Of a stretch of 14,709 nt of DNA, positions 2,283 through 4,831 are shown piece by piece. Origin of the DNA: a virus. Position numbers and translations under genes: made by a program. The notes beneath the pieces were generated by a model. That model ran no database searches. It was not told the DNA's origin and was given only the letters and a program-made list of their open reading frames with translations. The DNA is taken from the UHGV virus genome UHGV-0109417. One strand, given 5' to 3'. The number at the start of each line of letters is the position of its first letter. Positions within the stretch are counted from its first letter, which is position 1.

Positions 2283-2488
2283 GCTTCACCTCCGCAGAGA
2301 TCAAACGCTGGATGCAAAATATCGCAGGTGCATTTCTGCATCTGTGAATGGAGAAGAGAGGTTGGATTGTATGTGCGCATAAACGTCCCCGTTTAGCGCA
2401 GAAGTCACCGAAGTTGTTCAGGCTCCGATTACTTAATTATGGCAAGTTGATTATCGCAAATCAAAGGTTTTAATTGTGCTTTATTCTT

Positions 2489-2689
2489 TCAAGCGTTTCC
2501 TTCATACCAAAGCCTATAAAGTTTTTCTTCTTCGTTTGGGTTAATAGGCTCACCATGTTTTAATTTTTCAGTGTACAAAATTGTTGAACAAATCGCGGAA
2601 GTTAATCCAGTGATCGCCATCTGCCGCAGATCGGATTTTTGTGTCCCCCTCAACAGACGATCTCCCATCCATGTAATAATTGTATCCAT
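2489..2689 (-). CDS. Hypothetical small protein (66 aa), first gene of the moron
   Basis: ORF with ATG at 2689 preceded by AAGAAGGG. AT-rich compared with the flanking phage genes. No homology recognised. Confidence 0.4.
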   Translation of the reverse strand: MDTIITWMGDRLLRGTQKSDLRQMAITGLTSAICSTILYTEKLKHGEPINPNEEEKLYRLWYEGNA

Positions 2690-3275
2690 GCTTCAGCCCT
2701 TCTTAGTAAATAGTGTGTAGGGCGACTGAAGGACCGAGTTTATGCTTTTTCGCATTGCTTTCAGTTAGTAGACCGGTATAGCACCGGAAACAATCCTACG
2801 GCAAATTGGTTGTCTGACCTCTCGGTTTTTCGTGCATTAACCGATACCCACTACAGTCTCGGCGAAAGCTGCACACCCCCAAGGTGTACTGGTAGCACTC
2901 GGCACAGCCTAGCGCGCCACTTTCTTCTCACTATCCAGTCTAATTTTATCCCCTAGTCAGACACTCAGATGTAGTGCTCAGCAGCGGCATGCGGGGGAAT
3001 ACAAAAACTCGGACAAAATTGGGCCCTCCTTTTTGAATCACTCGCGGGGATGTAGTTATTAATACATGGGAAAAGATCTGTTTTCAAATCCAACATTATA
3101 TGGTTTCAATACCACGGGGTGGCTATGTGTTTCTCATTATTATTTACAATCTACTGTAATCGCTCCGAACGCAAATGCGTCAATACTCGAATCAACTGAT
3201 CATCCTGCCACGACTGAAATCTCAAATAGGCCGTTTCTCAAGTAAGAGATTTTGAATGCATTATTGGCTACTGAA
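2690..3275. other. About 590-bp non-coding stretch inside the moron; candidate ncRNA or regulatory region
   Basis: No ORF of 60 aa or more on either strand, and hand scanning of the minus strand found only peptides of 14 aa or fewer. Bounded by the terminator at 3276-3300. Contains a plus-strand sigma70-like promoter (TTGAAT-18-TATTAA near 3036-3065). Confidence 0.3.
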
Positions 3276-3300
3276 ATAAAAAACCCAGCGCAAACTGGGT
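3276..3300 (-). terminator. Intrinsic terminator after the secreted-protein gene
   Basis: Stem ACCCAG/CTGGGT (3283-3288/3295-3300) with loop CGCAAA, followed on the minus strand by TTTTTATTT. A T-run on the plus side lies 10 nt away, so it is possibly bidirectional. Confidence 0.65.
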
Positions 3301-3318
3301 TCATATGAAATTTTTTTG

Positions 3319-3813
3319 TCATTTCCAATTGCAAGACTGTGAAATTTTTTCCACAACCTTATCAATCTCAGACAAGTCAAACTCAACTACTTGCATAGTT
3401 GATCCATAAGGTTCAAACCCAAAAATAGCTTTTTTATGCTTAGCCAAGGTCTTTATAAATTGTATTGGTTGTGGAGCAAATGCAGAATCACCGCCTTCCC
3501 CACCTCCCCAAACACTCTTGACCGGCTTTCCGCCATCTAACCGCACTGTAATTCTTGGGTTGTCCGAACCCATATAATCATTGAATGATAAATAGGCATC
3601 TGTTTTGTTATCACTACAACGCAACACCAGTGAAGTTGCACGATCAGTACCTGCTTTGTTATATGAATCTGGTGATAAATTAAGAGCCACAAAGTCAGTC
3701 TGGTCAGTCATTTTATTTATCTCAGACTTTGTTATCCACGGCCCTAACTTCTCTACACCAGCATTTGCTGTAAACGAGGCACTTATAACAAAGGCTAAAA
3801 TAAATTTTCTCAT
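3319..3813 (-). CDS. Secreted/periplasmic protein of unknown function (164 aa, Sec signal peptide, two Cys)
   Basis: N-terminus MRKFILAFVISASFTANA-GVEK is a typical signal peptide with an AXA cleavage site. AAGGAG RBS 8 nt upstream of the ATG. AT-rich. Own terminator. Confidence 0.75.
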   Translation of the reverse strand: MRKFILAFVISASFTANAGVEKLGPWITKSEINKMTDQTDFVALNLSPDSYNKAGTDRATSLVLRCSDNKTDAYLSFNDYMGSDNPRITVRLDGGKPVKSVWGGGEGGDSAFAPQPIQFIKTLAKHKKAIFGFEPYGSTMQVVEFDLSEIDKVVEKISQSCNWK

Positions 3814-3959
3814 AACCCTATCTCCTTGGATTCAAAGAACTAAATATTATCAAGTCTCTTGCCACTAGAAAACCCACTTTATTTCCAAACTCTGATGGCA
3901 TTCCTGAAAATCCGCTTCATACTCACTTGCCCCGCCCTATCATCCTGAGTAGCTAACCG

Positions 3960-4133
3960 TTAAACAAACGTTCGCCAGACCTTACCATCAATGACCAGGA
4001 TTCCTGCCCGCGTCATTTTTGCCGCAGCCTTATTTATGCTGGTTAATGTCACACCTGTTGTCGCAGCAACGTCCGGCGCACAGAAGCTCTTGTGCGTCTC
4101 CAGATAATGAATAATTGCCTCTTTGCCCGTCAT
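3960..4133 (-). pseudogene. ren: Truncated ren (57 codons; lambda Ren is about 96 aa)
   Basis: Hand translation MTGKEAIIHYLETHKSFCAPDVAATTGVTLTSINKAAAKMTRAGILVIDGKVWRTFV* matches the N-terminal half of lambda Ren, then diverges and stops. ATGA overlap with the P stop. Confidence 0.65.
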
Positions 4134-4831
4134 ACAGTTGCTCCTTTCAGTCCGAACTTCGCTTTGATTTCTGCGATCTTCGCCAGAGCCTGAGCCCGGT
4201 TAAGTGGTCTACCGCCCATGACAGGAAGTTGTTTTACTGGTTCAGGTATAGCCTCACCACGGTTAATTCGTGCGGTCATACAGGACAGTTCATCGGCAGC
4301 CTTGCGCCGTAATTCCGCGTCAGTCAACGCATTGGCCCGCATGTTCTGATACAGGTTGGTAACCAGCCAGTAGTGCGCGTTTGATTTCCACGGATAAGAC
4401 TCTGCATCCGGATACAGCCCGCGCTTCCGGCAATACTCGTAAACCATATCAACCAGCTCGCTGGCGTTTGGCAGCCCGGCGGTAACGGATGCTTCTTCCC
4501 GGCACCAGGCGACAAACTGCCCGGGTGATGGCAGGAATGGTCGATTCTGCCGACGGGCTACGCGCATTCCAGCGTTAACCTGTTCCATTGTGGTGATCCC
4601 GTTTTCCCGAAAAGCCAGCACCCACTGGCGGCGGATTTCGTTCAGTTCATTCTGGTCACGGTTAGCCAGGCTCGCCGGGAAAGTTGCCAGTAACTGGCTG
4701 AACACACCGTTGATGATCTGCGCTACCTGCTGTACCTGCGGCTTTTCGTCGTACTGTTCCGGCATGTTGTTGGCGATCCGACGCATCTGCTCACGGTCAA
4801 AGTTAACCATCTGTGCGGCGATGTTTTTCAT
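4130..4831 (-). CDS. P: Replication protein P (DnaB helicase loader), near-identical to lambda P
   Basis: 233-aa ORF MKNIAAQMVNFDREQMRRIANNMPEQYDEK... matches lambda P along its whole length from memory. Confidence 0.92.
   Translation of the reverse strand: MKNIAAQMVNFDREQMRRIANNMPEQYDEKPQVQQVAQIINGVFSQLLATFPASLANRDQNELNEIRRQWVLAFRENGITTMEQVNAGMRVARRQNRPFLPSPGQFVAWCREEASVTAGLPNASELVDMVYEYCRKRGLYPDAESYPWKSNAHYWLVTNLYQNMRANALTDAELRRKAADELSCMTARINRGEAIPEPVKQLPVMGGRPLNRAQALAKIAEIKAKFGLKGATV

Follow-up and report, generated by a model that had tools for sequence, protein, structure and literature searches.

The virus genome UHGV-0109417 raises the question of what is carried by a long stretch without recognised genes. 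One strand of this genome, 14,709 nucleotides (nt) in length and hereafter called the window, was analysed here. Between positions 2690 and 3275, the initial annotation, made from the letters of the window, had reported a gap without coding capacity that might harbour an RNA of no familiar family. Consistent with this, the listing of open reading frames (ORFs) on both strands contains none of 60 amino acids (aa) or more in 2690-3275. The longest are 3066..3245 (plus strand, 59 aa), 2810..2956 (plus strand, 48 aa), 3334..3200 (minus strand, 44 aa) and 3096..2965 (minus strand, 43 aa), the last two contradicting the earlier statement that minus-strand peptides do not exceed 14 aa. A lambdoid prophage of Escherichia coli AR_0369, and of several other strains, shows 100% identity over the tested kilobase of the window, and the identical RefSeq genome NZ_CP027140 has no annotated feature across the stretch. 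There the gap measures 630 bp, whereas no other intergenic gap of the 19 kb shown exceeds about 390 bp. We found that the gap is a composite of an RNA gene, the stump of a P22AR-C (antirepressor-like) gene, the terminator of a secreted-protein gene, a promoter-like region and a linker. The RNA (2720..3053, minus strand, 334 nt) is structured and non-coding according to its comparative fold and its conservation, and matches no family. We are fairly confident that it represents an independent structured RNA gene of a new family, read from 3053 to 2720 in the direction of the early-right operon. An unclassified RNA had thus been correctly suspected in the gap, with the strand and the coordinates wrong: the conserved RNA occupies 3053-2720 on the minus strand and not about 3066-3283 on the plus strand.

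The conservation of this RNA is independent of both neighbour genes. Two Klebsiella phages match the window over 2716-3051 only, with 79% identity. In Kp4856-1 the flanks differ from those of the window (a dATP/dGTP pyrophosphohydrolase and an unrelated 183-aa protein), and the alignment has no indel over about 330 nt, with near-identical stretches of up to 66 nt between variable blocks; a clean intrinsic terminator follows the RNA core on the minus strand. The core 2720-3053 is found at 76-84% identity in other genera, without indels and with both flanks changing. Further homologues were harvested by exact-pattern scans of IMG/VR with the conserved blocks and by one metagenome scan, which gave about 90 further loci and 40 distinct cores. 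After 14 partial cores had been left out, the 26 full-length distinct sequences were aligned (alignment A4); they are 76-100% identical to the window and almost indel-free. The hosts are lambdoid phages and prophages of E. coli, Klebsiella, Enterobacter and Obesumbacterium, including the genomes of Enterobacter bugandensis and Obesumbacterium proteus. At every locus the RNA lies after the replication genes and before genes of the ninB/ninG/rusA/Q type, in the same orientation, and the adjacent genes vary.

The secondary structure was derived from the alignments. RNAalifold, applied to 13 sequences, gave 90 pairs, 17 of them with compensatory double changes, and a helix scan across all column pairs added two long-range interactions, a kissing loop and a pseudoknot. 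The resulting model of 100 pairs, both long-range interactions included, was counted on the 26-sequence alignment, with controls in which the 3' partners were slid by 1-3 columns. Canonical pairing was found in 97.2% of the cells (33-44% in the slid controls), 19 pairs were changed on both sides (2-6 in the controls), as were 164 cells (9-20 in the controls), and the covariation score was 0.226 (0.04-0.06 in the controls). An alignment for covariation was among the checks proposed in the initial annotation; it supports an RNA of the minus strand. The best-supported helices are 130-135/185-190, 136-141/157-163, 191-199/206-214 and 261-271/277-286 (alignment columns) together with the kissing loop; the stem of hairpin 191-214 shows compensatory changes in six of its nine pairs. 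Three sequences held out of the model keep 93, 99 and 99 of its 100 pairs, the first being that of Obesumbacterium, only 88% identical to its nearest sequence, and one of those with 99 that of Enterobacter.

In this model the RNA folds into about 18 helices arranged in two domains, which are joined by the loop-loop (kissing) helix and probably by the pseudoknot. The 5' arm of this helix (2971..2976, minus strand; columns 78-83, CACUAC) lies in the loop of hairpin 68-92, and the 3' arm (2849..2854, minus strand; columns 200-205, GUAGUG) is the entire loop of hairpin 191-214. Three co-varying states of the kissing loop were observed, CACUAC/GUAGUG, CACCAC/GUGGUG and CGCAAC/GUUGCG; pair 81-202 is AU in 10 sequences, UA in 10 and CG in six, and pair 79-204 is AU in 15 and GC in 10. 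The second long-range helix probably is a pseudoknot between columns 93-99 (2955..2961, minus strand; UCUGAC[U/C]) and columns 235-241 (2813..2819, minus strand; GGUCAGA), the latter strand lying within the 18-nt block GAGAGGUCAGACAACCAA. This 7-bp complementarity pairs in 99.5% of the cells, the sole variation being C or U opposite G. It is the least certain helix of the model because its strands are otherwise invariant and offer no covariation. Of the 26 sequences, 23 share an unchanged 18-nt block, the exceptions being C/U at column 249 (nine sequences), locus L073 at column 248 and the decayed copy of locus L070. The invariant unpaired blocks include, besides the GAGAGGUCAGACAACCAA block, GGAUAGUG and UAAU.CA.GAAAA.

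The RNA was assigned to the minus strand because of its G-U pairs and of the poorer pairing of the other strand: 285 cells are G-U, three pairs are G-U in every sequence, and the opposite strand would pair 86.3% of the cells only. The terminators described below are on the same strand. No coding signal accompanies this structure. Variable columns are distributed over the three codon phases as 49/57/49, without any 3-nt periodicity, the RNA core has no conserved ORF, and six-frame translations of six variants show nothing protein-like. Compensatory substitutions beyond those of slid controls, together with the absence of a coding signal, are what is generally expected of a structured non-coding RNA.

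These results bear directly on the view that the whole gap is decayed coding sequence or recombination junk. Decay is indeed present around the RNA: 3151-3240 is the P22AR-C stump, ren is a pseudogene, the 66-aa ORF downstream is truncated, and the RNA copy of L070 is itself decayed. The initial annotation had considered that the region might align as a decayed pseudogene of a known protein in related genomes, and this applies to 3151-3240, but not to the remainder. The core, in contrast, is constant in length and retains 97% of its base pairs from genus to genus, with different sequence on either side; 60-nt stretches are identical in sequences that are 78% identical overall, codon periodicity is absent, and no protein homologue was found in any frame. 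Decay or junk as an explanation of the whole gap therefore seems to us scarcely credible.

Within the 5' part of the RNA (2985-3031, minus strand; columns 23-69), a UUG at the start of a frame of 12-19 codons is preceded, at a distance of 8 nt, by a perfect Shine-Dalgarno sequence (AAGGAGG). The encoded peptide would be MSEFLYSPACRC, followed by RAQHLSV in most clades, and the allele of the window stops early. Could such a tiny ORF, or a site acting at the DNA level (a recombination hotspot or boundary, an operator array or an origin), explain the conservation? The ribosome-binding sequence is perfect and the frame is kept in most variants, but there is almost no synonymous variation, the 3' half varies non-synonymously, and the frame of the window ends earlier; constraint at the nucleotide level seems to dominate in this region, although translation of the frame is conceivable. 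As for a DNA site, cargo genes are swapped exactly at the 3' end of the element, the element is mosaic and an inverted repeat lies upstream of its -35-like box; a double-stranded DNA site, however, requires neither compensatory changes nor strand-specific G-U pairs. We hold both of these explanations to be very improbable.

The ends of the RNA were located from conserved motifs. Its 5' end is probably the A at 3051 (AUCCCCGCGAG...), and the conserved 3' end, ...CCAGUCGCC, lies at about 2720. A promoter-like region (3058..3087, minus strand) consists of a -35-like TTGAAA (3087..3082), an 18-nt spacer and a -10-like ATTAAT (3063..3058) that ends 6 nt ahead of the A at 3051. The same layout is found in all clades, with TTGAAA, TTGAAT or TTGTAT, 17-18 nt of variable spacer, TTTAAT, TTAAAT or ATTAAT, then 6 nt and an A. 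Conserved boxes around a variable spacer are a pattern typical of a promoter, and we infer that a sigma-70-type promoter proper to the RNA lies at 3087-3058. Just ahead of the -35-like box (about 3088-3110, minus strand), the clades also share an A-tract and a short inverted repeat (CCATA-N3-5-TATGG, of which the window has CCA...TGG), which might serve this promoter as operator or UP-like element.

At the other end, 13 of 21 variants have a GC-rich hairpin and a T-run 5-8 nt past ...CCAGUCGCC, with stems that vary among variants in a compensatory manner; the terminator scan flags that of L066. This intrinsic terminator occupies, in most relatives, the place of the 30-nt linker of the window (2690..2719, minus strand), which contains the ribosome-binding site of the next ORF. 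The terminator is absent from the window type and from L056 and L061, in which the RNA runs into an ORF beginning MDT... after about 33 nt. In the window, a transcript with the RNA at its 5' end would consequently read on into the next, truncated ORF of 66 aa.

The initial annotation had instead read a sigma70-like promoter on the plus strand (TTGAAT-18-TATTAA, at about 3036-3065), from which a small RNA (sRNA) of about 230 nt would run to a hairpin at 3283-3300. The two hexamers do exist (TTGAAT at 3034-3039, TATTAA at 3058-3063), as does the hairpin, and a T-run stands a few bases past the hairpin on the plus strand too. The promoter, however, was not flagged by the scan and was judged fortuitous: its -35 hexamer is antisense to columns 15-20 of the minus-strand RNA and is lost in other clades, relatives having CTGGAT or TCGGAT at this place. 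The hairpin, real as it is, was scored on the minus strand only, where it is the terminator of a 164-aa gene rather than the end of an sRNA. Furthermore, the conservation of 3066-3280 does not reach beyond close E. coli relatives, and this interval corresponds to a minus-strand gene stump and an insertion junction. A plus-strand sRNA is accordingly most improbable.

The minus-strand RNA has a narrow distribution. It is carried by 159 of 5426 complete E. coli genomes (2.9%), in one copy each, and in none of the 159 is a feature annotated under it. Only four records of INPHARED phages have matches, and PLSDB plasmids gave none. Two-block and three-block patterns that do match the window and 65 of 69 loci gave no match in 185,579 species-representative genomes, which makes the family rare or narrow, not widespread. 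It appears to be previously undescribed and is, as far as sampled, confined to lambdoid phages and prophages of Enterobacterales. Carriers include the cultivable phages Turner and IdasGreatGrand and the strains EC93 and NCTC9080.

Two copies deserve separate mention. That of Obesumbacterium (L098, 2136-2467) is recombinant, with the 5' hairpin of the L053 clade, a centre of the E. coli clade and helix 261-286 of the L082 clade; pairing is preserved inside each segment. The copy of L070 (4024-4356, minus strand) has substitutions in otherwise invariant blocks (the 5' AUCUCUC and GGUCAGUCAGGC) and broken pairs, including those of the kissing loop, and looks like a decaying gene.

Several points weigh against the reading of an independent RNA gene, or at least against parts of it. 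The pseudoknot 93-99/235-241 and the 5' hairpin 9-63 are supported mostly by invariant bases. The folding energy of the single sequence is no better than that of shuffled sequences (z = -0.52), such z-scores being uninformative for both strands, so the case for an RNA rests on the comparative evidence. Only about five clades, all of a single bacterial order, contribute to that evidence, and recombination has affected the RNA gene itself; per-pair statistics are thus inflated by shared ancestry, which the slid controls remedy in part. The ends of the transcript were deduced from sequence, and a consensus promoter scan flags the RNA promoter in none of three clades because the -10-like box has no A at position 2. 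Alternatively, the RNA may arise by processing of the long early-right (pR) transcript. Finally, in several lineages the RNA is fused to the downstream ORF without a terminator, an arrangement that would suit a cis-acting leader equally well.

The genes that follow the RNA were compared. In the window, the 66-aa ORF (2489..2689, minus strand) is a truncated allele of a 118-aa four-helix MDT protein (phrog_12412/8527) and is devoid of the best-conserved, C-terminal half of this family. The full-length gene was located at L003 (3071-3427) and also in L098, L100 and L103. AlphaFold models the 118-aa protein as a four-helix bundle (predicted local distance difference test score 79.6), for which a comparison with PDB folds gave no significant match (best E 0.4, with de novo bundles and HEPN toxins at chance level). 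Every 118-aa gene retrieved from a nin region has the RNA directly upstream (about 33 nt), free of a terminator and with three different RNA subtypes, and the association spans four genera, with examples from E. coli, Enterobacter bugandensis and Obesumbacterium proteus as well as from metagenomic contigs. No RNA lies upstream of a 51%-identical paralogue found near an integrase.

Elsewhere, the RNA terminator is followed by an orphan gene, encoding a 183-aa protein with an RxxxxH motif (L002, 2400-2951, minus strand), a 178-aa protein with two hydrophobic, presumably transmembrane, segments (L068, 3994-4569), a 177-aa protein (L086, 5704-6237) or a 95-aa protein (L051, 14155-14442). The orphan downstream proteins had no match in Pfam, NCBIfam or PADLOC. 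In L053 the gene next to the RNA is of the ninB/DUF1367 type, without orphan cargo. The slot after the RNA terminator looks like a hotspot for accessory, possibly defence, cargo.

The element could accordingly be a cis-acting 5' leader that controls or stabilises the downstream accessory gene, through terminator read-through or translation, with no role in trans. The constant, terminator-free association with the 118-aa gene speaks for it. Moreover, where a terminator is present the orphan gene usually begins 25-60 nt later with no evident promoter between, and the order promoter-RNA-terminator-gene is that of type III toxin-antitoxin loci and of riboswitches. A riboswitch or leader should, however, precede one constant class of gene, and here at least five mutually unrelated genes (for the 118-aa helical, 178-aa, 183-aa, 95-aa and 177-aa proteins), or none but the plain ninB/DUF1367-like gene of L053, come after the RNA; such variable neighbours are to be expected anyway, since gene boundaries in the lambdoid nin region are all mosaic. 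The linker of variable length (5-8 nt) parts the terminator stem from the fold, and no conserved alternative pairing between the two was seen by eye. At 334 nt, with tertiary contacts between domains, the RNA is also far larger than known leaders. We therefore regard a purely cis-acting leader as unlikely, although the two models are compatible and not mutually exclusive.

The independent RNA gene that we favour would be expressed as a self-contained accessory (moron-like) cassette, and it would act in trans via its tertiary fold and its invariant unpaired blocks. It would most likely bind a protein, for which it could be a scaffold or a decoy, or else be a ribozyme. Base-pairing in the manner of an sRNA is less likely, because constraint is spread over the entire RNA and the remainder of the window offers it no extended complementarity; a search for antisense targets within the window returned chance 9-mers only. 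Large RNAs this dense in tertiary constraint are usually ribozymes, ribonucleoprotein cores or specific protein binders, and new classes of them are rare. Any specific function for the present RNA is nevertheless proposed with low confidence. More ambitious, and in our opinion doubtful, is the idea that it founds a new class of large tertiary-structured phage RNAs (ribozyme or RNA-protein core), a constant module with interchangeable orphan effectors (the four-helix protein, the protein with two transmembrane segments, the RxxxxH protein). Temperate lambdoid phages would use such a cassette in conflicts with other phages or with the host, and the RNA would be its sensor, antidote or decoy.

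The setting of the gap is that of the nin region of the early-right operon, with the surrounding genes all on the minus strand. The RefSeq order on this strand is O, P, ren (frameshifted), a 164-aa TagO, the gap, a 66-aa hypothetical, a small hypothetical, ybcN/ninB, ninE, DUF1364, rusA, ylcG and Q. The ren gene (about 3867-4135 of the window, minus strand; L001, 10466-10734) is disrupted in the identical RefSeq prophage, whose annotation makes it a pseudogene with a frameshift and an internal stop. Comparison of the neighbour proteins with Pfam, PHROGs, PADLOC, NCBIfam and PDB profiles gave no functional match except a weak VasI, the dATP/dGTP pyrophosphohydrolase and P22AR-C.

Outside the RNA, the gap is debris: what is left of the P22AR-C gene, and the terminator that came with the newly inserted gene for a secreted protein. 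When the gap was compared by distant BLAST with complete E. coli genomes, 3161-3239 matched annotated genes with a P22AR C-terminal domain in hundreds of them. Phage Turner, 94-95% identical to the window over 2400-3239, has at this position an intact 107-aa ORF that matches Pfam P22_AR_C (PF10548; E 1e-15). Alignment and translation against Turner identify 3151..3240 (minus strand) as the dead 3' remnant of this gene, with its last 29 codons or so and the stop (...ETAYLRFQSWQDDQLIRVLTHLRSERLQ*), and with an in-frame stop ahead of it. On the 5' side of the stump, the window departs from Turner into a low-GC gene, the insertion of which severed the P22AR-C gene.

The inserted gene (3319..3813, minus strand; GC 0.37-0.42) is an accessory gene for a 164-aa signal-peptide protein of VasI/TagO type, named TagO in RefSeq and with a marginal match to PF11319 (VasI; 26.7 bits for a cutoff of 26.5). 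It occurs in this lineage only and is missing from phage Turner and every distant relative compared. Such a protein resembles an accessory of type VI secretion, yet the prophage has no genes of a type VI secretion system nearby. Directly past the stop of the gene, the scan places its intrinsic terminator at 3281..3302 (minus strand; a 9-bp stem followed by TTTATTTC), so that 3241-3318 is insertion junction and terminator. In prophages of the Turner type (phage Turner being L003, 4324-6439), emrE/qacE, a ybcK-like serine recombinase of 508 aa and the P22AR-C gene come before the RNA. DLP12 of E. coli K-12 has this arrangement too, but with ybcL-ybcM in place of P22AR-C, RNA and MDT gene.

Few genomes have been studied as closely as those of the lambdoid phages of E. 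coli, yet a conserved RNA has stayed unannotated in about 3% of complete E. coli genomes and in prophages of Klebsiella, Enterobacter and Obesumbacterium. Prophage "non-coding gaps" thus still conceal RNA genes that are missed by Rfam-based annotation. This one sits in a genetically tractable host and, beside interchangeable orphan genes, is a marker for the cargo hotspot of the nin region.

The RNA was finally compared with known families and systems, and it is rated as a new RNA class because every test of membership in a known family was negative. The 4227 covariance models of Rfam 15, a search that the initial annotation had proposed, gave, over the entire window, no match at the gathering threshold; at E<=10 nothing overlapped 2720-3053, and nothing fell on the RNA in five diverse homologues either. 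The weak matches obtained (C0465 and the rimP leader; E 2.7-6.3) are merely the terminator hairpin at 3281-3302. In the full-text literature, including searches with exact sequence strings, no description of the RNA was found. Individual candidates were likewise rejected. ARAGORN finds no tRNA or tmRNA gene in the window. For the msr/msd RNA of a retron, no reverse transcriptase is annotated within 9 kb on either side, and the neighbours have no reverse transcriptase domain. For a ToxI-like antitoxin, 2400-3450 contains no tandem repeats beyond an 11-nt chance pair outside the RNA, and Pfam, PADLOC and NCBIfam reveal no neighbour of the ToxN/AbiQ type. For a hok/sok messenger, six-frame translation of six variants gave no Hok-like or other hydrophobic peptide, and no such coding sequence is annotated in the 159 genomes. 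The put elements of HK022 are two stem-loops of about 35 nt just after pL/pR that act in cis on RNA polymerase; the present RNA lies about 3.5 kb downstream of pR, past O and P, and has 334 nt and about 18 helices.

Among the systems that it recalls, hok/sok also produces highly structured transcripts of about 350-400 nt with long-range 5'-3' pairing, common in enterobacterial prophages, but these encode a Hok peptide and our RNA does not. DicF, IpeX, AsxR/AgvB, StxS, the Pas sRNAs and IsrK are, like it, intergenic in lambdoid prophages and have their own terminators. Prophage sRNAs of the DicF/Pas kind are base-pairing RNAs of 50-170 nt, usually Hfq-dependent and with a seed region (10.64898/2026.05.13.724894). 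The present RNA, in contrast, has 334 nt, is structure-constrained throughout, shows no extended complementarity in the window and does not match their Rfam models. The Gifsy-1 determinant of RtcR activation is a different element (PMC9879122).

With the type III toxin-antitoxin systems (ToxIN, CptIN, TenpIN) and the RNA-regulated AbiF, the locus shares the succession of promoter (here putative), structured RNA, leaky terminator and small orphan gene in a prophage accessory region. It differs from them in that the RNA is a single unit and not a set of tandem repeats, that it is also found without any cargo gene, and that the proteins downstream are unrelated to each other and to ToxN, AbiQ and AbiF. 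In kind, the RNA comes nearest to GOLLD, ROOL and HEARO, large orphan structured RNAs of Rfam that are associated with phages and mobile elements. They differ from it in sequence and structure (no match by cmscan), and the present RNA is smaller (334 nt), belongs to lambdoid phages of Enterobacterales, has a fixed position in the nin region and spans a narrow phylogenetic range. Like those RNAs, however, it is a non-coding molecule of several hundred nucleotides with many helices, long-range tertiary pairings and invariant unpaired blocks, borne by phages or prophages and without a constant protein partner.

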